Assembly (NCBI GenBank): GCA_963169855.1
Contig: CAUJCN010000002.1
Location: 133,508-197,507 of the forward strand
Length of the DNA: 64,000 nt
Direction: 5' to 3'
Source of the DNA: Patescibacteria group bacterium
Lineage (GTDB): Bacteria; Patescibacteriota; Dojkabacteria; J137
The stretch's first letter is position 1; every line of letters begins with the position of its first letter. The notes beneath the pieces were generated by a model. The model worked only from the letters and a program-made list of their open reading frames with translations. It was not told the origin of the DNA and did not search any database. Both the position numbers and the translations under genes were made by a program. Positions 16,285 through 46,330 of this stretch are shown one piece after another.

Positions 16285-17532
16285 TCATCTAAATCTCTGA
16301 AGCTTTACTGATTTCTCCCCTCCTTGGCTTACTTTGATCAAAGTTGCAACAGAAATTAAAGAAATAACCGTACTACTACCTCCATACGAAATGAAAGGAA
16401 GTGTGATTCCTCCAAAAGGAATAACTGCAAGATTGGCGGCAATGTTCAGGAACGCTTGCGAAGCAATTCCAGTCGTGATTCCTGTTGCCAAAATGTTATC
16501 GAACTTACTGGTCGTGCTTTTAGCTATCGTATATCCTTGAGAAATAAATACCATGAATAAAACCATCACACTAACAGAGCCAACTAAACCAAATTCTTCA
16601 CCAACAATTGCGAAAATAGAGTCTGTGTAGGCCGCTTCTTGCAAGAAGAATAATTTCTGCCTAGATTCTCCGTAACCCAAACCGAAAATACCTCCTGAAC
16701 CAATACCAACTAACCCATTCCAGACTTGAAAACCTTCATCTGCTTTTGCTGCGTTTGACGGTTCACCATCTACAAGAATTTGCACAAATGCATTAACTCT
16801 TTCTCTTCTGTATTCAACGCCAACTAAAGCAAAGATACTTGCGATAATTCCCATTAGAGTTACAACCACAATCGCAGTTTTTTGATACTTTTTATCCACA
16901 CCTATATAGTAAGCAGCAATGAAACCCACATAAATAATTACTATTGTGTCAAAGTCTTTCTGTAACAAAATTAAAAGCGAACCCAGCAAAACGACGACGA
17001 CAGGGAATAGCAGGTAAATAAAGTTTAAAAGTTTGTATGTGTATTCTCTATCTCTATAGTTCTTAAGGAATTGCTCAATGCTTTTCTGGGTTGAAGAACT
17101 CATCGTAAGCCAAGCTGCCGTAAAGATAATTATTCCGAATTTAAAAAGCTCACTGGGCTGAAGGTCAAACAACCCTAAATCGATCCATCTTGTAGCTCCA
17201 TTTAAAGTATTTACAAGAGGCATATCAATATTAAATAGCGCTTTGGGGAGAGTATAAACAATCAGTAGAAGAGAAAACCCTGTAAAAATGTAACCTAGCT
17301 TTCTTAACCCTTCGTACTTAATCTTAATAAAATAGTAACCAACTAAACAACCTAGAATGATCCATATACCTTGTCTCTTAAAGTAGTAAAACAAGTCACC
17401 ATCTCTATACACATATGCTAACGAAGAACTTGCGCTGTAAATCATCAGAAGTCCAAAAACAAGAAGAATTGCAACAACTATTACAAGCCCTAGATAACTT
17501 TTAGGTTTTTCTTTATTTGCGTAAACATCCAT
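16285..17532 (-). CDS. SEDS family peptidoglycan glycosyltransferase (FtsW/RodA)
   Basis: The N-terminus LGLVIVVAILLVFGLLMIYSASS and the ~10 TM topology are typical of FtsW/RodA/SpoVE. Confidence 0.8.
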   Translation of the reverse strand: MDVYANKEKPKSYLGLVIVVAILLVFGLLMIYSASSSLAYVYRDGDLFYYFKRQGIWIILGCLVGYYFIKIKYEGLRKLGYIFTGFSLLLIVYTLPKALFNIDMPLVNTLNGATRWIDLGLFDLQPSELFKFGIIIFTAAWLTMSSSTQKSIEQFLKNYRDREYTYKLLNFIYLLFPVVVVLLGSLLILLQKDFDTIVIIYVGFIAAYYIGVDKKYQKTAIVVVTLMGIIASIFALVGVEYRRERVNAFVQILVDGEPSNAAKADEGFQVWNGLVGIGSGGIFGLGYGESRQKLFFLQEAAYTDSIFAIVGEEFGLVGSVSVMVLFMVFISQGYTIAKSTTSKFDNILATGITTGIASQAFLNIAANLAVIPFGGITLPFISYGGSSTVISLISVATLIKVSQGGEKSVKLQRFR

Positions 17533-17606
17533 AAAAACATTCTACAATATACACCTAATTGATTGATATTACTGTATAATTTGTATATTAAATTGACTAC
17601 TGTACT

Positions 17607-28753: not shown

Positions 28754-28843
28754 GTTTCAAGATTATATCAGATGAAAAGCATTATGGTAATCCCACCAAA
28801 GTGTTTCATCGTAATGAAACTCAAATAAGTGATACAATAAGTT

Positions 28844-29239
28844 ATGGCATACAACGAACTTACAAACGAAGAAAAAAGAGTAATCGAAGACAAGGGAACT
28901 GAACATCCTTTTACAGGAGAATACGATGATTTTTACGTGACAGGAACTTTTATTTGCCGTAGATGCAATCTCCCATTGTTTAGTTCCAAAGCAAAATTCA
29001 ATGCAAACTGCGGATGGCCAGCTTTTGATGATACATTTCCAAATGCGGTGAAAAGACTTACAGATACAGATGGGTACAGAACTGAAATTGAGTGCGCGAA
29101 TTGCGATGCTCATTTGGGACATGAATTTACTGGTGAAGGATTTACCAAAAAAGATACTCGTCATTGTGTAAATTCAGTTTCAATAAAATTTGTTCCAGAA
29201 GGCGAAACATTGCCGGAAGGTTTAACACAACAAACATGA
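28844..29239 (+). CDS. msrB: Peptide-methionine (R)-S-oxide reductase
   Basis: The zinc motifs CRRC and CANC are present, as is the GCGWPAF…HLGHEF catalytic motif. Confidence 0.85.
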   Translation: MAYNELTNEEKRVIEDKGTEHPFTGEYDDFYVTGTFICRRCNLPLFSSKAKFNANCGWPAFDDTFPNAVKRLTDTDGYRTEIECANCDAHLGHEFTGEGFTKKDTRHCVNSVSIKFVPEGETLPEGLTQQT

Positions 29240-38193: not shown

Positions 38194-39549
38194 TTATCCG
38201 ACACTTCCCTTCATCGACATCTTGATTAGCTCATTCATTTCAACTGCATACTCCATTGGAAGTTCTTTTGCTATTGGTTCCACAAATCCTGCAACTATTA
38301 ATCCACCAGCTTCTTCTTCAGAAAGGCCTCTAGACATTAGATAGTAAAGCTGGGATTCACTAACCCTAGAAACACTTGCTTCATGTTCAACTTTAGCAAG
38401 TTTTTCGTTAATTTCATTGTAAGGATACGTATCTGTTTGGGAAATGTTATCCAAAATTAATGCATCACAAACAACTTTCACTTTCGCATTCTTTGCTCCT
38501 TTAGTAACTTTGACTTGTCCTCGATAACTTGTTCTACCACCATTTTTGCAAATGGATTTAGTGGTGATTACACCACTGGTGTTTTTTCCAATGTGGATCA
38601 TTTTTGCTCCCGTATCTAAATGCTGACCTTTATCTGCAACCGCTATCGACAAAACCTCTCCGTGTGATCTATTTCCTACCAAAATTACGCTTGGATACTT
38701 CATAGTTTTCTTCGATCCCATATTGCAATCAACCCATTCAATTGTCGCATCTTCGTAAGCCAAGCCTCTTTGCGTTACTAGGTTATACACATTTTTAGAC
38801 CAGTTTTGAATTGTTGTATATCGTATTCTTGCACCTTTTAAGGCAATCAGTTCTATTACTCCAGAATGCAGTACATCTGTCGAATAAGTAGGTGCTGAAC
38901 AACCTTCCACATACTGAACTTCAGACCCTTCGTCAGCGATAATCAAGGTTCTTTCAAACTGACCTAGGTTAGCGGTTTTAATGTAGAAATATGCTTGTAA
39001 CGGAACTTCAACCTTGACTCCTTTTGGAACATAAACGAAACTTCCTCCACTCCAGCATGCTGTATTCAAAGCTGCATATTTGTTGTCTGTTGAAGGTATT
39101 GCTTTACCAAACCATTGTTTAAATAGTTCTGGATATTTTTTCAAAGCAGTATCTGTATCTGTAAAAATAACACCTTGTTTTTCCCACACTTCTTTAACTT
39201 TTCCATAAACTACACTCGAATCATACTGAGTCTCTACTCCTGCTAGAAATTTTCTTTCAGCTTGAGGAATTTTAAGCTTATCGAACGTTTCTTTCATCTC
39301 TTCAGGAACTTCATCCCAAGTTCTAGATTTTTTAGACTCTGGAGTTACATAAAATCTAATGTCATCTTCTTTTAGTTCTGATAAGTCGACACCCCAAGTC
39401 GGCATAATTCTTTCCTCATAATGATCATAGGCTTTCAGTCTATTTTCTGTCATCCATTTCGGCTCTTCTTTAAATAGAGATAGAGCTTCAACCACATCTC
39501 TGCTCAATCCTGGTTTGGATAGAATGTCTTTTGCTTCTTGAATATTCAT
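38194..39549 (-). CDS. sufB: Fe-S cluster assembly protein SufB
   Basis: FERTLIIADEGSEVQYVEGCSAPTY and the C-terminal beta-helix region are typical of SufB. Confidence 0.85.
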   Translation of the reverse strand: MNIQEAKDILSKPGLSRDVVEALSLFKEEPKWMTENRLKAYDHYEERIMPTWGVDLSELKEDDIRFYVTPESKKSRTWDEVPEEMKETFDKLKIPQAERKFLAGVETQYDSSVVYGKVKEVWEKQGVIFTDTDTALKKYPELFKQWFGKAIPSTDNKYAALNTACWSGGSFVYVPKGVKVEVPLQAYFYIKTANLGQFERTLIIADEGSEVQYVEGCSAPTYSTDVLHSGVIELIALKGARIRYTTIQNWSKNVYNLVTQRGLAYEDATIEWVDCNMGSKKTMKYPSVILVGNRSHGEVLSIAVADKGQHLDTGAKMIHIGKNTSGVITTKSICKNGGRTSYRGQVKVTKGAKNAKVKVVCDALILDNISQTDTYPYNEINEKLAKVEHEASVSRVSESQLYYLMSRGLSEEEAGGLIVAGFVEPIAKELPMEYAVEMNELIKMSMKGSVG

Positions 39550-39658: not shown

Positions 39659-40405
39659 ATGAAAAATCCTACAAAAAAGGTAATGACTTTTTTTGCACTA
39701 GGGACGATTATGTTTTCAATGTTACAAGCACCAGTACATGCGGTGGCAGGACAATGGTCGGCAAATGGGAATTCTATTTACTACATGGATGGATCTTTAG
39801 GAATAGGCTCTACCAACCCGGCAGGAAAGTTTACAGTTGTAGGTAACGATTCAAGTGTTAATACAACTATACTCAAACTGGGAAATCTTGATGCAAGGAA
39901 CTGGCACTTCGTTGCAGCTAAATATCAGCATAATGCTTATGGAGACTATGCTTTGGTTTTGTCTCAACCTGCATATTCTGGGGGATGTGCTAACGCTTGT
40001 AGAGGGGATTTAGTCTTACAGCCAGGCAGAAATACAGTGATAAATACAGGCAACGTAGCCATAGGAACTAATAATCCTGGCAATTATAAGCTTGCAGTCA
40101 ATGGAACAATAAAGGCTAAGGAAATTGTCGTTTCCATGAATAATTGGGCAGATTACGTATTTGAAGACGATTACAAATTACTGCCACTTAACGATGTTAA
40201 GTCATTCATTGAAGCAAACAAGCACCTACCTGGAATACCTTCTGCTAAAAACATCGAATCTAGTAACTTACCTATTGGAGAAATGCAACGTTTACAGATG
40301 GAAAAAATTGAAGAATTAACTTTGCATTTGATTGAAAAGGATGAAGAGATTGGCGAGTTAGAAGAAAGGTTGGAGAGATTAGAATATTTAGTTAGTTTAA
40401 ATTAA
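39659..40405 (+). CDS. Secreted protein with a Gly/Asn-rich beta-rich N-terminal region and a conserved C-terminal domain ending in a coiled coil (tail-fibre-like)
   Basis: It has a signal peptide (…MLQAPVHAVAG). The C-terminal WADYVFEDDYKLLPLNDVKSFIEANKHLPGIPSA…EKIEELTLHLIEKDEEIGELEERLERLE resembles a domain seen in tail-fibre-like surface proteins. Confidence 0.45.
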   Translation: MKNPTKKVMTFFALGTIMFSMLQAPVHAVAGQWSANGNSIYYMDGSLGIGSTNPAGKFTVVGNDSSVNTTILKLGNLDARNWHFVAAKYQHNAYGDYALVLSQPAYSGGCANACRGDLVLQPGRNTVINTGNVAIGTNNPGNYKLAVNGTIKAKEIVVSMNNWADYVFEDDYKLLPLNDVKSFIEANKHLPGIPSAKNIESSNLPIGEMQRLQMEKIEELTLHLIEKDEEIGELEERLERLEYLVSLN

Positions 40406-40411
40406 GAGCAT

Positions 40412-41704
40412 ATGAATAAGAAAGCAAAATTCCTGGTAATGTTTTTGCTGCTGGTTGCGATGGTACCAGCGGGAATGTATTCGATTGTAGAAGGCCGGGT
40501 TGTGAGTGGTGGTGTTGAGGGTATCTCAGAAGATGCTTCTCGAATAAACTCACTTCCGGAACTCCCACCAGGCACAGAATTGGACTATGATACAAGTGAC
40601 CTACAGGAGCTATATTCAAAGGATGAGATTGCGAGGTTAGTTAATACAACTAGAGTTGTTTATAAGCATAAAACTTCATCACTAAAATTCAAGGTAGATT
40701 CTACTATTATTCCAGAATCTTTTGAGAATAACGCCGCTTTCAACTCTATTAATTGGCAACGTACATTTATGTTAGCCTCTGGAGAAGCTGTGCAAATTTC
40801 AGTATGGAACCTTGATAAAAAGAAAGCTGCAAAAGCACTTCATGAAGCATTGGCGAATCGGGACGGTTGTTCAATAGACATATCAAAATATTGCACAACT
40901 AATTTTCCTGCACAACCACGAGTCAGCTCGGCATACTTTAAGTATCATATATTTGAAAACTCATTGGTAAGAGTTATGTATACTTTTACGGAACTTTACG
41001 AAGTTGAAGCATTTAAACAAATTGCTAATAGCGTAAAAGTAGATGGAGTAAAATTATTCGAGAAAAAAGATTTTAAAATTTTAGAAGGAAATATAAAAAT
41101 ACGGACAACTAGTGCTTTGCGTGGAGCAAATACATGTGGAGGCCTCACGGATACAAACAATCCTTATAATTGTTGTTCCAGTAGCATAACGGGACAACAC
41201 AATGCCAATTGTACGTGGTATGCGGCATATAAAAGACCCGATTTAAAAGGTATCATAACCCAGTACCCGGGTGGTCTTTGGAATCAAGTTATAGAGACCA
41301 AACCCGAATTAATCAGTTCAACCCCTGTAGCAGGAGCATTAATTGTTTGGGAGTTGCATGTTGCATATGTAGAATCTTCTGACAGTAACTCTGTGACTTG
41401 GTCTGAACAAAACTGTTACAACGCATGGTACCATGCAGATGGAAGCTATGGTGGCGCAGTAAACTCATTCAATGCAGCTGTAACTAAACACTCCCATTCC
41501 CCAGACTATGGTGCAGGATACTTTTTGGGGTATATCCTACCGCAAGGTGGAACTAGTTCAAATTCATGCAGTGGGAATAATCCTGTAATGGCTAATTGGA
41601 ATAGTTCTGGGGGATTATCATGCTCACCCACAGGGACGTTAAAAATACATCCTACCAGTACCTTGCAGAGTACGACTGGAGATATTAATATTAAACCAAG
41701 ATAG
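40412..41704 (+). CDS. Secreted CHAP-domain protein (putative peptidoglycan amidase/peptidase)
   Basis: It has a signal peptide. The Cys (NCTWYAAYKRPDL) and His (LIVWELHVAYVES) of the CHAP catalytic dyad are in the correct spacing. Confidence 0.6.
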   Translation: MNKKAKFLVMFLLLVAMVPAGMYSIVEGRVVSGGVEGISEDASRINSLPELPPGTELDYDTSDLQELYSKDEIARLVNTTRVVYKHKTSSLKFKVDSTIIPESFENNAAFNSINWQRTFMLASGEAVQISVWNLDKKKAAKALHEALANRDGCSIDISKYCTTNFPAQPRVSSAYFKYHIFENSLVRVMYTFTELYEVEAFKQIANSVKVDGVKLFEKKDFKILEGNIKIRTTSALRGANTCGGLTDTNNPYNCCSSSITGQHNANCTWYAAYKRPDLKGIITQYPGGLWNQVIETKPELISSTPVAGALIVWELHVAYVESSDSNSVTWSEQNCYNAWYHADGSYGGAVNSFNAAVTKHSHSPDYGAGYFLGYILPQGGTSSNSCSGNNPVMANWNSSGGLSCSPTGTLKIHPTSTLQSTTGDINIKPR

Positions 41705-41717
41705 TTAAAAGTATTAT

Positions 41718-42815
41718 ATGAAAAAAACATACATAATCGTTTCGATTTTATTACTAATAACTTTATTAGTAGTACCATTAGCTTTCATACTCTTAAGGAC
41801 GAATTCCGAAACCCTAAATGTATCCACGAATTCTCAGTCAGTCGAGGACACTGTTGAAGTTGATCCGTTTCACTCGTCCATTTATTACGTTCATTTAAAT
41901 AATGTTCATTTTTTGCATGAGGATAATTCTATAAAGCTGACAGACTTTCCAGAATCTGAGGATTGGAACTTCACCGAAATAACTAGGTTTGGGGATAAAC
42001 TTGGATTTGGAGTTTGCGCTACAGAATTAAATAATTTTGGATGCGAGATAATGTTGGTGAATATTAATACCCAAGAACTGGTTACAATTTTCTCACTAAC
42101 GCCAGATGATCTATTGGAAAACCTAACCTTTCACTCTGAAAATACATACGCATTCGATTACTTCAGAAATGGCAATAGTTGGATACTAGAACTGCACAGC
42201 AATGGAACTAGAAGCCAGCTACACAACATCGAATTTGACGGTTACGGCCGAAACAGGAGTATCAATGATGCTGACTATCTTTCGTTTTCTCCTGAAGGAA
42301 ATCATTTATTGCAAATCGCTACTGATTCACCACGCAGCCAGGTAGATTTTAATACTTACATTTACGATGTAGATACCCGTGAACAAAATGTGGTTAGTAA
42401 TGCAACCCATCCGACATGGGCAACAAATGATTCTATTATATTTAAGAACTATCCGGATGGTGGTCTCTCTAGCTACAATATTGAAAACAGTTCAACTCAA
42501 GCTGTTGACGAAAGCGCCTCTGCATTAATAATTGAAAGAGTTGGAAATTTGATACTTTATCTTGCTGGTGGGGTCATTAATTCAGTTGGTAACGATAGTA
42601 TAACGAACCTAAACGACGGCGCAGTTTATAAGTTTAGAGGTTATGATAATCTAGTAGTCTATCAAATTACTGAACCTTGTTTGGGACCAGATTGTCTGGG
42701 AAGGAACAGCGACTACCAGCTTAGCGAATATTTAATTATGGATACTCTGACAGGCGAATTGTTAGATCTTGAGATACCGAAGGATACTGTCTTGTTTCAT
42801 AAAGGAATGTTTTAA
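41718..42815 (+). CDS. Secreted/anchored hypothetical protein
   Basis: It has an N-terminal signal anchor (MKKTYIIVSILLLITLLVVPLAF) and a beta-rich sequence. Confidence 0.4.
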   Translation: MKKTYIIVSILLLITLLVVPLAFILLRTNSETLNVSTNSQSVEDTVEVDPFHSSIYYVHLNNVHFLHEDNSIKLTDFPESEDWNFTEITRFGDKLGFGVCATELNNFGCEIMLVNINTQELVTIFSLTPDDLLENLTFHSENTYAFDYFRNGNSWILELHSNGTRSQLHNIEFDGYGRNRSINDADYLSFSPEGNHLLQIATDSPRSQVDFNTYIYDVDTREQNVVSNATHPTWATNDSIIFKNYPDGGLSSYNIENSSTQAVDESASALIIERVGNLILYLAGGVINSVGNDSITNLNDGAVYKFRGYDNLVVYQITEPCLGPDCLGRNSDYQLSEYLIMDTLTGELLDLEIPKDTVLFHKGMF

Positions 42816-42904
42816 AAAATATGAGCCATAAAACAAAAAAATACATTTTAATCTGATTAGGACTAGGCTTAGTTTTAATAATCTCGCTTTTAGTAAATTA
42901 TCTA

Positions 42905-43516
42905 GTGAGTATAAGGGTGAACCTTAATACAGCCCCTGTCTCCTATCTTACCGAAGAGCCTCCTCTAGAACTTATTGAATACAGTGGTGAATTTCTGAGA
43001 GCAAAGTTACCTCCAGACTGGGACATACAAGAGCTTACAAACATCGATGGAATGGATGATTTGAGGACAAACGCAGACTACATAGGCCTGACTGGTATAA
43101 ATGTTTTAAAGAATGGTGAAACCCTTATGCAGTTAAGGGGTGTTGATGGAATTGGAGGAATTAAAGTTTGTTCAGAACTACATCAATTCTTGGATACTAA
43201 TCCAAGTTACATAGAAAATAATGTTCTATTTGCACGAGAACAAGGCTTAAGTGATCCTATAGTAGTTGATCTTAGCGAGCATGATTTTGTAGAGATAGAG
43301 ATTTTAGGTCATGATGTCAGAAAAGTTGGGGATAATTACTATTGGAATAATTCCAACTCATCATCAGAATTTAACCCAATATGCGGAGATTTAGGATCTA
43401 TTCAAGAGTTGGAGGGTTTGAGCTTTTCTATTGAAAACACCGCAAAACCAATATTGGAGCTGTACAAAGTAACTTTCGCCGATAATCTTACTGATTCAGA
43501 CTTTAAAGGTGATTGA
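42905..43516 (+). CDS. Hypothetical protein (GTG start; start uncertain)
   Basis: An open frame with no ATG before 42905. No family was recognised. Confidence 0.3.
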   Translation: MSIRVNLNTAPVSYLTEEPPLELIEYSGEFLRAKLPPDWDIQELTNIDGMDDLRTNADYIGLTGINVLKNGETLMQLRGVDGIGGIKVCSELHQFLDTNPSYIENNVLFAREQGLSDPIVVDLSEHDFVEIEILGHDVRKVGDNYYWNNSNSSSEFNPICGDLGSIQELEGLSFSIENTAKPILELYKVTFADNLTDSDFKGD

Positions 43517-43571
43517 AAGTATAGTTAACTCATTGGAGTTTAACGATGTGGATTAACTTTAATGCCAGTAA

Positions 43572-43910
43572 CTACTCCACAGGAAAAATCATCTCCCCCG
43601 TTTCTTTGTCAAAAATCTTAATGGCAAAGACGGGACATGATTGTGCTCCCATTAAAATATCGTCATCAGAATCAAAATCTTCTGATTCGGTATTAATTTC
43701 AGCTCTGTTCTCATCATTCATTACAAAAGTTAGAGGTGCAATTACCGCACAACTCGCTGCACCAATACATTGATTCTTATCATATTCAACGATGTACTTT
43801 GAATTCACTGATGTTGCCCTGTACAATCCAGGACCAATCTCTTCTACCGTAATATTACCTTTTTTGAAAACCTTTTTAGGTTTTGTATTTTCGTCATTTG
43901 TATCTTCCAT
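43572..43910 (-). CDS. Ferredoxin (single [3Fe-4S]/[4Fe-4S] cluster type) with an acidic insert
   Basis: The Cys pattern CIGAASCAVIAP…CP is present. Confidence 0.5.
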   Translation of the reverse strand: MEDTNDENTKPKKVFKKGNITVEEIGPGLYRATSVNSKYIVEYDKNQCIGAASCAVIAPLTFVMNDENRAEINTESEDFDSDDDILMGAQSCPVFAIKIFDKETGEMIFPVE

Positions 43911-43992: not shown

Positions 43993-45327
43993 ATGCTTGA
44001 ATTTAACCACGTCTCAAAAATATACGATAACAATATAGTAGCTGTAAATGACATTTCGTTCAAAGTCAAAGAAGGAGAATTTGTTTTTCTAATCGGTGCT
44101 TCTGGAAGTGGAAAAACCACAGCTATTAAAATGTTGATTCGTGACGAGAACCCAACTACGGGAGCTGTATACTTCAGAGATCGAGACATCACAAAGATCG
44201 GTAGGTCAAGAGTTTATAAATTAAGACGAGAAATCGGAGTTATTTTTCAAGACTATAAACTTATTCAAGATAAAACCGCATACGAAAATGTAGCTTTCGC
44301 AATGGAAGTTGCAGGTAAGAAGAATAAAGAAATCAAAGAAACTGTACCATACGTTTTAGATATTGTAGGACTTAATCATAGATCGAACTCTTTCCCTAGA
44401 CAATTATCCGGAGGGGAACAGCAGAGAGTTGCTATCGCAAGAGCTATTGCGAATAGTCCAAAAGTATTGATTGCTGATGAACCGACAGGAAACCTTGACC
44501 CTTCAAGTGCATGGGACATTGTTCAAATTTTGAACAAAATAAACAACTGGGGAACAACTATTATCATGTCTACCCACGGTACCGACATTGTCAATTCTCT
44601 TAACAAAAGAGTTATTCAAATGGAGTCTGGAAGAATCATTCGAGATGACAGTAAGGGGCAATACGAATTAGCTCAGAAAAAAGACTTTGAACAAAAAATG
44701 GATCAAAATGCTGAGGAAGTTGTAAAGAAGAAAGACAAATTAAAAATCAAAATCGATATGGATGAACCATCCGAAGAACCAGAGTTGGAAGTCGAAGAAG
44801 GATTAGAAATTTCTGAAGCTCCTCGTAAAGGAATTTTTGGATTCTTTAAAAGAGTAAAACCAAGAGTAGAAACATTCAATGCCTTAGAGCAGATATTAGG
44901 AAAGCCTTCAAAAGAGAACGATAGCCAAGAATACGAATTAGAAGAAGAAACAGATTCTGAAGCAATAAATAACATCGAGGAAAATACTGTAGCAAATCAA
45001 ATGCAAACTTCAGAGAAGGAAGACAAGAAAAAAATCAAAAAAGAATCTGTAAAAAAAGAAGTTAAGAAAAAGCCAACAAAGAAATCCAGACCATTGAGTA
45101 TGGATAACTCTAATGGAGAAATTCACACTGGGTTAGGAAACACTTCTCTTGACCAGCTTGAATTAGAACCTGAGTTAATAGAAGTATTAAAAGAAGCAGG
45201 GTACAATAATGTAGAGGAAATAATAAACGATGGGGTTGAAAACCTAAGAGAAAAAGTTGATTTAAGTAAAAGAGAATTATTAAAAATAGCTAGATCAATA
45301 AAATCTACTCATTCATCAGAAGAATAA
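43993..45327 (+). CDS. ftsE: Cell-division ABC ATPase FtsE with a ~220-aa C-terminal K/E-rich extension ending in a helix-hairpin-helix (RNAP alpha-CTD-like) domain
   Basis: Walker [10 protein letters not shown], the signature [14 protein letters not shown] and Walker B LIADEPTG are present. The tail ends in [42 protein letters not shown]. Confidence 0.85.
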
Positions 45328-45328
45328 A

Positions 45329-46330
45329 ATGTTATCAAGAATATTAGCAAATACAAAAAAACAGATTCAACGAAGCGGATGGGCTGGTTGGGGATCTGTA
45401 AGTGTTATGACACTAGCTCTGTTAGTAGCTATTATTTTTGGAGGGTTAGCTTACTTCAGTAATCTTTGGATCCAATACATCGAATCCAGAAGTAACATTT
45501 TAGTTTTCTTCGAAGTTGGAATGGACAAGGAAGTTGTAGAAGCTCTTAAGGAGAAATGGGAAATGAATCCTCAGATCAAATCTATAAACTACACTACAGA
45601 AGAAGAAGCTTACTCTATCTATGGCGACTATTCTTCAAAAGTTCAACCTATTCAATATGAAGTTCTAAGCACCAATCAATTTATCGATGGAAAGCTTCCA
45701 TCGAGTTTAGATATTCAAATTTACACACTAAACGATCTTAAATCAGTTACAGAACTTGTTAAGAAAGATATTGATAGTGAGGTTAAGAAATTAGAAATTA
45801 TCCCAGCAGATTCAAGCAAACCTGTTGAGTATAAGTATTCTCAAGATCCAACAGTACCACCTATTACTTTAAGAGTTGATAGTGAAAGTCTAGACAAATT
45901 ACGAGAAGTTTTACTCACTTTAAGAATTGCTGGAATTGCAGTTATAACATTGCTTTTTGTTGTCATTTTCTTCTTCACATTCATGACAGTTGAGTTCAGA
46001 TTATATAACCAGATGGAGGAAATTGGAGTCATGCAACTGGTCGGTGGAAGCCTCTACTTTATACGTACACCCTATATTCTCGAGGGAAGTTTCTACGGAT
46101 TTATTGGTGCATTGATTTCTACGTTCTTAATTGGAACCGTTTTAACTGTAGTATTCGTTCTTAACCCAACTTCTGCAATTAGTGTATTCTTATACGAGAA
46201 TTTTGCAAGATTACCGTGGCCACAAGTGACACCTTTCGGTTGGGCGGGAGTTATTGCTTTAATAGGATTTGTTGGTGCATTTATCGGAGGATTCAGTACA
46301 TGGTTCTCTATCAGAAGATATATCAGATAA
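45329..46330 (+). CDS. ftsX: Cell-division permease-like protein FtsX
   Basis: It lies 2 nt after ftsE. It has an N-terminal TM helix, a large periplasmic domain and three C-terminal TM helices, which is the FtsX topology. Confidence 0.8.
   Translation: MLSRILANTKKQIQRSGWAGWGSVSVMTLALLVAIIFGGLAYFSNLWIQYIESRSNILVFFEVGMDKEVVEALKEKWEMNPQIKSINYTTEEEAYSIYGDYSSKVQPIQYEVLSTNQFIDGKLPSSLDIQIYTLNDLKSVTELVKKDIDSEVKKLEIIPADSSKPVEYKYSQDPTVPPITLRVDSESLDKLREVLLTLRIAGIAVITLLFVVIFFFTFMTVEFRLYNQMEEIGVMQLVGGSLYFIRTPYILEGSFYGFIGALISTFLIGTVLTVVFVLNPTSAISVFLYENFARLPWPQVTPFGWAGVIALIGFVGAFIGGFSTWFSIRRYIR

Follow-up and report, generated by a model that had tools for sequence, protein, structure and literature searches.

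A variable fibre-plus-hydrolase gene cassette in a very small, probably patescibacterial genome

The gene block and its proteins

The stretch of DNA considered here, referred to throughout as the window, encompasses 64,000 nucleotides (nt) of contig CAUJCN010000002.1 (positions 133,508 to 197,507; assembly GCA_963169855.1) and harbors a block of four consecutive same-strand genes, g1 to g4. These lie exactly at the positions given in a preliminary description of the sequence and are separated by gaps of 6, 13 and 89 nt (Table 1). That description viewed the block as encoding four exported proteins, including a tail-fibre-like protein (g1) and a CHAP peptidoglycan hydrolase (g2). The intact genes are g1, g2 and g3, all three of which have the N-terminal signal peptide or anchor that had been ascribed to them, as judged, for all four proteins, by a heuristic of hydropathy and charge only; g4 is decayed, and the count of four exported proteins does not hold. 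The block is a chromosomal operon of exported proteins in a very small genome of low guanine-plus-cytosine (GC) content that is itself probably patescibacterial. When the four proteins were scanned with Pfam, NCBIfam and PHROG, the only significant match was that of g1 to a PHROG tail fibre.

Table 1. Positions of the genes, domains and segments discussed in the text (numbering of the window; ORF, open reading frame; aa, amino acids)
Feature	Positions	Strand	Extent	Description	Basis
g1	39659-40405	+	248 aa	fibre-like protein	ORF
g1 signal peptide	39659-39742	+	residues 1-28	MKNPTKK + hydrophobic core + VHA	hydropathy/charge heuristic, alignments
g1 capping-loop motif 1	39791-39844	+	residues 45-62	GSLGIGSTNPAGKFTVVG	alignment
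g1 variable body	39793-40271			no nucleotide homology to L053, L055	blastn
g1 capping-loop motif 2	40049-40120	+	residues 131-154	GNVAIGTNNPGNYKLAVNGTIKAK	profile match to Bd2133
g1 C-terminal domain	40121-40402	+		W-A/P-D-Y-V-F ... NKHLPGIPSA ... MEKIEELTLHLIEKD; ends in 42-residue helix	
conserved junction	40272-40510			g1 3' end, 6-nt spacer, first ~100 nt of g2	blastn
g2	40412-41704	+	430 aa	CHAP hydrolase	ORF
replaced segment	40511-43568			g2 body, g3, g4; no nucleotide homology to congeners	blastn
g2 middle domain	40649-41101	+	residues 80-230	PsbP/DcrB/TiME/Tsi3-like fold	AF2 + Foldseek
g2 Cys-rich lead-in + CHAP	41129-41521	+		C267 41210-41212, H316 41357-41359, E332 41405-41407, N334	
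g2 two-Cys tail	41555-41701	+	residues 382-430, 47 aa		tblastn, hhalign
g3	41718-42815	+	365 aa	probable membrane-anchored propeller protein	ORF
g4 as listed ORF	42905-43516	+	203 aa		
g4 full extent	42821-43556	+		decayed gene, membrane-anchored two-Cys domain family	
sufB	38194-39549	-		left neighbour of block	
ferredoxin gene	43572-43910	-		right neighbour of block	
ftsE/ftsX	43993-46330			just downstream, past ferredoxin gene; ~0.5 kb from block	

The g1 protein carries three Lys/Arg residues, a 15-residue hydrophobic core (Kyte-Doolittle 1.97) and a VHA/AVA site at its N-terminus, an arrangement that fits a cleavable Sec-type signal peptide. Alignments of the patescibacterial-type homologues reveal that A28, G31 and W33 are invariant, and the A-x-A-G-Q-W signal junction is kept in the closest homologues. 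A capping-loop motif of the form GxVGIGT..P..KL.V.G is found at residues 45-62, where G45 and G50 are invariant, and after a variable stretch the motif occurs again at residues 131-154. The rest of the protein is a C-terminal domain that follows the family pattern W-A/P-DYVF.DYKL..L...E.FI..NKHLP.IPSA ... MEKIEELTLHLIEKD and finishes in a long terminal helix, its invariant residues being W163, D165, V167, F168, L190, P191, K216, E218, E219 and L220. In the AlphaFold2 (AF2) model, which has a mean predicted local distance difference test score (pLDDT) of 74, this domain reaches values of 84-98, with pLDDT above 90 at residues 170-248 and a helix at residues 206-247. The conserved C-terminal domain plus coiled coil of the preliminary description is borne out by these values and by the size of the family, which at E<=1e-3 comprises more than 2,141 homologous clusters. 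Its members nearest to g1 are proteins of 215-280 aa in metagenome and metagenome-assembled genome records, and distant ones are found in the Bacteroidota (Sphingobacterium, Pedobacter, Chitinophaga and Mucilaginibacter).

The likeness of g1 to tail fibres, which had also been proposed, is upheld by several comparisons. A profile covering motif 2 and the C-terminal domain, searched against the PDB, identifies the Bdellovibrio fibre Bd2133 (8OND, E=2.1e-6), and further matches of the family profile are to the fibres Bd1334, Bd2439 and Bd3182, with every alignment running through the motif. Foldseek returns the beta-helix domains of Bd2133 (8OND, E=1.2e-4) and Bd3182 as its only significant PDB matches, and among viral models it gives 17 matches at E<=1e-3 (range 4e-5 to 1e-3), these being tail-fibre, S74, endosialidase and 'intramolecular chaperone' proteins. 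The PHROG match mentioned above is to the tail-fibre group PHROG 9942 (E=1.1e-4). With Pfam and NCBIfam g1 gave no match to any model, the local Pfam collection has none covering the C-terminal domain of the family, and no PDB or Pfam relative of that domain was found; single-sequence PDB searches with g1, and with g2, returned nothing. Peptidase_S74 is not matched by g1 at E<=1 and there is no SDxxxK after the second loop, while the MyRF ICA domain is matched only at E=5.2. Because it has neither the S74 dyad nor an S74 match, g1 lies outside the S74 fibres: it resembles a fibre but belongs to neither the MAT nor the S74 family, and is most aptly viewed as a single beta-helix module with capping loops, followed by a novel helical C-terminal domain that stands where the S74 chaperone would be.

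The second protein, g2, likewise has three Lys/Arg residues and a hydrophobic core (2.59 by the heuristic) at its N-terminus, which would act as a signal peptide or an anchor. Its family consists of nine clusters, and the Pfam model PF05257 (CHAP, peptidase C51) is matched in 8/9 members, at best with 6.5e-11. A family profile of the C-terminal half also matches solved CHAP domains (2lrj at 5.9e-11 and 2k3a at 2.1e-8, as well as 5t1q, PcsB and the phage ORF56 CHAP protein, 9euf/9eum). C267 (in NCTWYAAYKR), H316 (in HVAYVE) and E332 (with N334 in SEQN) align to the catalytic positions of these solved domains, and C267, H316 and E332 are invariant in the nine sequences. As far as can be read from its sequence, g2 is an exported peptidoglycan hydrolase with an intact Cys-His-Glu(Asn) CHAP set. 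The CHAP domain of the preliminary description thus stands, although the Cys-rich region that it placed at the N-terminus is in fact mid-protein, at residues 240-258, directly preceding the catalytic Cys.

Two further modules flank this catalytic part. By Foldseek, the middle domain of g2 (AF2 pLDDT ~70-89) resembles PsbP, BT_1490, TiME and Tsi3 (E 1.6e-3 to 4e-2, probabilities of 0.8-1.0), and for the matches at E 1.6e-3 to 1e-2 the probability is 0.97-1.0 and the TM-score to the target 0.4-0.5; no sequence-level match to this PsbP-like domain was found, and comparison with the second genes of the M23-type cassettes described below yielded no homology to it (hhalign probability 0.5%). The two-Cys tail is 55% identical over 47 aa to the C-terminus of an M23 peptidase encoded at a related locus, L056 (tblastn, E=3e-11), and the same tail is present on a free-standing CHAP protein of another locus, L055 (hhalign 96% probability, tail included). 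It is marginal on the M23 enzyme of L053, for which 2/1,000 shuffles reached the score, and on those of L054 and L057 it scores no better than shuffles. Five long homologues of g2 (706-742 aa; P0004-P0008; L006, 10001-12121) carry an additional N-terminal subtilase, which is fused in them to the PsbP-like, CHAP and tail modules and whose His motif is GHGC in place of the usual GHGT.

The third protein, g3, is made up of a signal anchor (a 23-residue hydrophobic core, 3.13 by the heuristic) and an extracytoplasmic domain of ~330 aa that includes a TolB/PD40-like motif, LSFSPEGNHL. Two other cassettes, those of L007/L008 and L056, have a g3 homologue behind their hydrolase gene; the first is 27% identical and has a precomputed match to Tricorn_N, and the second is 29% identical (E=1e-31) and weakly matches DPPIV_N. 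A word-index homology search with g3 returned only g3 itself, the comparison with the fourth gene of L053 matched the membrane anchor alone, and profiles of g3, as of g4, found nothing in the PDB. Judging from the motif and these distant relatives, g3 is probably a membrane-anchored protein with a beta-propeller fold.

The fourth gene accounts for the discrepancy with the preliminary description. From its annotated start g4 has no signal or anchor segment by the heuristic, and the anchor is instead found upstream, in frame from an ATG at 42821, where it is cut by a TGA at 42854-42856. At the other end, the last helix of the family (LKVIESIVNSLEF) carries on in a different frame, which ends with the stop at 43554-43556. 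A hidden Markov model of the family scores 191.8 bits over g4 in one frame, the other-frame continuation being only weakly supported, and a -1 frameshift at ~43497-43503 is probable. The family has 193 members at E<=0.001, and 143 at E<=1e-10, in a representative library, and in these proteins a membrane anchor at the N-terminus leads via a linker into a domain of ~180 aa with two conserved Cys (33/33 aligned). The lesions are the same in five assemblies, which are identical over 4,022 nt and all represent one strain, and g4 is a decaying gene.

Two other explanations of these lesions were considered. Recoding of UGA (tables 4/25) is rejected, as TGA is a real stop elsewhere and only one internal TGA is present: TGA is a rare but genuine stop that terminates 5/69 long ORFs of the window, and the four cases other than g4 (for example 28841-29239 and 16285-17541) are at natural protein ends. 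An assembly error is unlikely given that the five assemblies are identical, though they come from one strain. Elsewhere in the g4 family, in P0132 and P0160, the two-Cys domain is fused via a membrane segment behind region 2 and region 4 of an extracytoplasmic function (ECF) sigma-70 factor, giving an architecture like that of a single-chain sigma/anti-sigma pair, with the domain duplicated in P0132.

Genomic setting, pairing and replacement

The genes flanking the block are all housekeeping genes over 10 kb on either side; sufB lies to the left, and the ferredoxin gene, ftsE, ftsX and the gene for the CCA-adding enzyme follow to the right. There is no GC anomaly over the block (0.36-0.375 against ~0.35 window-wide), the window is without rRNA genes, and a scan of the locus for promoters and terminators gave scores no better than shuffles. 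The adjacent FtsE (43993-45327) is 444 aa long and consists of an ABC ATPase followed by a Lys/Glu-rich extension of ~220 aa, which terminates in a segment resembling a helix-hairpin-helix, with a weak RAD51D_N match at residues 391-434.

This setting bears on the alternative that the preliminary description itself had offered, in which the block is what is left of a prophage or tailocin tail or lysis module, detached from its mobile element. Several observations would accord with such an origin: g1 has both fold and motif in common with phage tail fibres, tail-associated lysins are typically of the CHAP or M23 type, the g2 profile includes the phage ORF56 protein among its matches, and a few viral contigs have a g1-like gene. 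One of these, an IMG/VR contig (L036, 1-8118), encodes a reverse transcriptase, possibly that of a diversity-generating retroelement, and a tail fibre of 1,284 aa, with a 197-aa g1-family gene 1.7 kb further downstream. Yet no integrase, terminase, capsid or any other phage gene is found within 10 kb on either side of the block, tblastn of g1 and g2 against 50,697 GenBank phage records gave no match, and g1-like genes occur at just 18 loci among 2.9 million viral contigs, as opposed to the more than 2,141 cellular clusters. Each protein, moreover, has a Sec-type N-terminus of its own, which virion proteins lack, the GC content is normal, and the cassette stands at the same chromosomal site in three congeners. 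A phage remnant is consequently very improbable, and we have set that part of the preliminary description aside.

Comparison with related loci indicates that a g1-type gene and a hydrolase gene travel together. The pairing is found in 9/9 related loci, and this argues that the block is more than a chance association. At the three loci reached via homologues of g2 (L005, L006 and L007-L010), a g1 homologue is immediately upstream in all, and at the loci reached via the closest homologues of g1, 5/5 have a hydrolase gene of the CHAP or M23 class, confirmed with Pfam, as the first or second gene downstream. The enzyme is of the M23 class, within two genes downstream of the g1 homologue, in L053, L054 and L056; L057 has a 505-aa M23 protein together with a giant M23/SH3 protein further downstream; and in L055 a CHAP gene is followed by one for a membrane-anchored PsbP_2 protein.

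The pairing also appears to extend, in another form, to the Bacteroidota. A scan of metagenomes identified 79 Bacteroidota-type loci of the g1 family, many of them tandem arrays. Home-made hidden Markov models for CHAP and M23 proved too insensitive on these 79 loci, missing even the CHAP of L055, and were replaced by Pfam scans, with which the neighbouring genes were classed. In a convenience set of 20 single-copy loci, which is not a census, the next gene encodes a secreted peptidase or glycosidase (M23, M43, M12, C10 or GH44) in 8, a BNR/sortilin propeller in three, other cargo of the type IX secretion system (T9SS) in four, OmpH in one and nothing recognisable in the remaining four. These downstream genes point to payloads that act outward. 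Among the single-copy loci noted (L134, L067, L095, L101, L091, L092, L135, L131, L064, L125 and L093), the hydrolase or propeller gene lies a few nt downstream of the g1-family gene, and a T9SS sorting domain is often present. The arrays, as in Sphingobacterium spiritivorum (L058, 3244-14863) and Pedobacter (L059, 221-7756), are composed of 8-12 consecutive same-strand paralogues without a Pfam domain.

Within the genus, the locus is syntenic in three congeners, with differing cassette contents. In two of them, represented by L053 and L055, the flanking proteins are mostly 73-93% identical to those of the window (SufB 93%, FtsX 91-92%, CCA-adding enzyme 85% and ferredoxin 84-85%), and both have ftsEX downstream, while other cassettes stand between sufB and the ferredoxin gene. 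That of L053 is composed of a fibre, a 209-aa protein, an M23 enzyme and a 212-aa membrane protein, and that of L055 of two fibres, a 239-aa protein, a CHAP enzyme and PsbP_2. At the nucleotide level, blastn homology is kept over 39659-39792 (to 39759 for L055) and over 40272-40510, and resumes at 43569 with the ferredoxin gene, so that the body of g1 and nearly everything from early g2 onward is without a counterpart. The junction between g1 and g2 is 83-86% identical to that of the congeners, compared with ~75% in the housekeeping flanks, and on account of this higher conservation it is a probable recombination anchor; its conservation suggests either recent exchange or selection on such an anchor. 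Residues 1-47 of g2 are in addition 62-68% identical to the starts of the otherwise unrelated second genes of L053 (8811-9440) and L055 (5974-6693), and this common start of ~47 residues on unrelated proteins implies a conserved export leader that has been grafted onto different bodies. Replacement between conserved anchors (the 5' end of g1 and the g1/g2 junction) is the mode by which the cassette evolves, with the result that congeners differ in their fibre bodies and in the class of their hydrolase, CHAP or M23.

The proximity of ftsEX raises the question of whether the module serves the cell's own envelope, with g1 as a surface or wall fibre of the producer and g2, or its M23 equivalent, as an autolysin for growth or daughter-cell separation, possibly under the control of FtsEX. 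The window and both congeners have ftsE and ftsX a short way downstream, known partners of FtsEX use domains of the CHAP or M23 type, and g1 terminates in a long coiled-coil helix. PcsB, too, is among the profile matches of g2, and the sole NCBIfam match of g2, although weak (E=0.031), is to the CHAP region of PcsB. Against this, g2 has no coiled-coil domain, none being present in its AF2 model, and a ferredoxin gene on the opposite strand stands between the block and ftsE. The linkage to ftsEX is confined to this genus, since the cassettes of L054, L056, L057, L006 and L007 are not adjacent to these genes. In congeners with flanks ~75-93% identical, a housekeeping autolysin would not be expected to change enzyme class together with the surrounding genes, and the partners in Bacteroidota-type loci are secreted proteases and glycosidases. 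An own-envelope role is accordingly one that we regard as unlikely.

The pattern of replacement also invites comparison with a secreted bacteriolysin and its immunity function, of the kind represented by lysostaphin and zoocin A, in which the hydrolase would serve as a weapon of competition that kills bacteria nearby, one of the accessory parts, either the PsbP/Tsi3-like domain or the small membrane proteins, would protect the producer, and the fibre would be incidental. As at polymorphic toxin loci, enzyme classes are swapped and 5' parts are kept while the bodies vary; the PsbP-like fold matches that of the Tsi3 immunity protein as well (E ~0.02), and L055 has its separate membrane-anchored PsbP_2 protein directly after the CHAP gene. 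Immunity proteins, however, are seldom part of the enzyme itself, as the PsbP-like domain is in the window, and hhalign relates this domain to the PsbP_2 protein of L055 with a probability of only 10%. The bacteriolysin explanation moreover leaves the constant leading fibre gene unexplained, and it overlaps with the interpretation that we favour below, as a foreign wall is the target in both. We consider it quite improbable as a full account of the cassette.

A proposed role for the cassette

The interpretation that we favour, and to which we attach about even confidence, is that the cassette is a diversifying fibre-plus-lysin module directed at foreign cell walls. In this scheme g1 would be exported via Sec and would assemble as a trimer into a short fibre of beta-helical fold, capping loops bounding its single beta-helix module on both sides and its C-terminal helical, coiled-coil domain occupying the position that the S74 trimerization chaperone has in phage fibres. 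The fibre would then be shown on the surface, where it may recognise or adhere to a foreign cell, be it host, prey or competitor. The exported g2 would cut peptidoglycan and so open the wall of that foreign cell locally, while its PsbP-like domain and two-Cys tail of 47 aa would be accessory modules that may serve regulation, targeting or docking. The g3 protein could likewise be a membrane-anchored, propeller-like accessory with a part in regulation or docking. Such a scheme would parallel both the receptor-binding proteins of phages with their tail-associated lysins and the MAT fibres of Bdellovibrio. A foreign target is favoured because the cassette is hypervariable among congeners and because the payloads in Bacteroidota-type loci act outward, and enzymes that degrade the host cell-wall polymer arabinogalactan are reported to be encoded by a patescibacterial parasite (PMC11880426).

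The attack or attachment arsenal envisaged in the preliminary description is retained here as an exported fibre-plus-CHAP cassette, and it is strengthened by the pairing, by mosaic replacement and by the interchange of CHAP and M23; a host-attached life of the organism and the host wall as the target, and with them the trimerization of g1, its surface display and the coupling of fibre to enzyme, are steps that we infer. A number of results weigh against the scheme. The beta region of g1, modelled as a monomer, has a pLDDT of only 50-70, and the low TM-scores of the g1 Foldseek matches (0.14-0.31) indicate local similarity. The g2 protein does not itself match the Pfam CHAP model (E<=1), its AF2 model has a mean pLDDT of 59.6 with 50-75 in the CHAP region, and its Foldseek matches to CHAP folds (Ly7917, Gsp amidase and PlyGRCS) are weak, at E 0.016-0.12. 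Ordinary autolysins, too, can be of the CHAP or M23 type, ftsEX is only 0.5 kb downstream, and the evidence from the Bacteroidota comes from the convenience set described above.

A broader and more doubtful proposition, which we put forward tentatively, is that the g1 family represents an unrecognised cross-phylum module of two parts, a short trimeric beta-helical fibre and an interchangeable, adjacent secreted hydrolase, in which the C-terminal domain, placed like the S74 chaperone, would be non-proteolytic and which in Patescibacteria would form a device for docking to and breaching a host. If this were so, the payloads would be lineage-specific, with CHAP, M23 and subtilase-CHAP enzymes in ultra-small Patescibacteria and T9SS-secreted proteases and glycosidases in Bacteroidota, and the swapping of cassettes at conserved anchors would set host range.

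The individual domains, CHAP and the beta-helical fibre, are of known kinds. In the literature we found no description of the C-terminal family of g1, of its regular pairing with secreted hydrolases, or of an ultra-small genome with an exchangeable cassette of fibre and lysin. To our knowledge, how episymbiotic ultra-small bacteria recognise and breach the walls of their hosts is largely unknown beyond type IV pili, and a compact, fast-evolving operon of fibre plus lysin is a testable candidate for this process and a possible marker of host-range variation between strains. The presence of the g1 family beside secreted hydrolases in the Bacteroidota hints at a general principle for targeting or displaying extracellular enzymes that is without annotation today. 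The modular hydrolases (CHAP, M23 and S8-CHAP, with a shared tail) may also merit screening for lytic activity.

Comparison with known systems

The first comparison is with uncharacterised Bacteroidota members of the same family, whose records call them hypothetical proteins, 'cell wall anchor' or 'bZIP'. These share with g1 the capping loop and the C-terminal pattern W-P/A-DYVF...KHLP.IPSA...KIEELTL at 35-66% identity. They differ in being longer and in their surroundings, as they often stand in tandem arrays of 8-12 or have T9SS proteases, glycosidases or propellers downstream.

PcsB, which combines a coiled coil with a CHAP domain, and EnvC, which combines a coiled coil with a LytM/M23 domain, are hydrolases controlled by FtsEX. 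The cassette matches them in its catalytic classes and, in this genus, in having ftsEX nearby; it departs from them in that its hydrolase lacks a regulatory coiled coil, outside the genus the adjacency is not kept, and the cassette is hypervariable. With bacteriolysins such as lysostaphin and zoocin A, and with polymorphic toxins, the cassette has in common a secreted M23 or CHAP enzyme, the replacement of bodies behind conserved 5' segments and small accessory genes after the enzyme. Unlike bacteriolysins, it has no recognised SH3b or TRD targeting domain and no demonstrated immunity gene, and a fibre gene always comes first.

Phage fibres with S74 domains, taken together with tail lysins, resemble the cassette in the beta-helical fold of the stalk, in a C-terminal domain at the position of the chaperone, and in the underlying principle, a binder joined to an enzyme that cuts peptidoglycan locally. 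In contrast to these fibres, g1 is without the SDxxxK dyad, and the cassette has its own Sec signals, a chromosomal housekeeping context and no tblastn match in GenBank phages.

The final comparison is with the MAT fibres of Bdellovibrio, which are surface-displayed trimers for prey recognition (Caulton et al. 2024, PMC10769870). Their capping loop, with the consensus V-G-G/N-pi-x-x-P-x-x-x-L, caps a trimeric beta-helix and has been linked to phage fibres bearing S74 (PMC10769870). In g1 this loop has one residue more before the Pro than the MAT consensus. At 248 aa, as against ~1,000 aa in MAT fibres, g1 is much the smaller protein, and the ~16 residues between its signal peptide and first loop leave no room for the N-terminal beta-rich domain of ~130 aa found in MAT fibres. 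It also differs in having its own helical C-terminal domain rather than an S74 domain or a lectin- or TNF-like tip, and in belonging to an operon with a hydrolase. These differences notwithstanding, the MAT fibres Bd2133 and Bd3182 are like g1 in having a signal peptide and a beta-helix module bounded by capping loops of the GxVGIGT..P...L type, and like the g1 cassette in their mosaic evolution and in a proposed role in recognising another cell.

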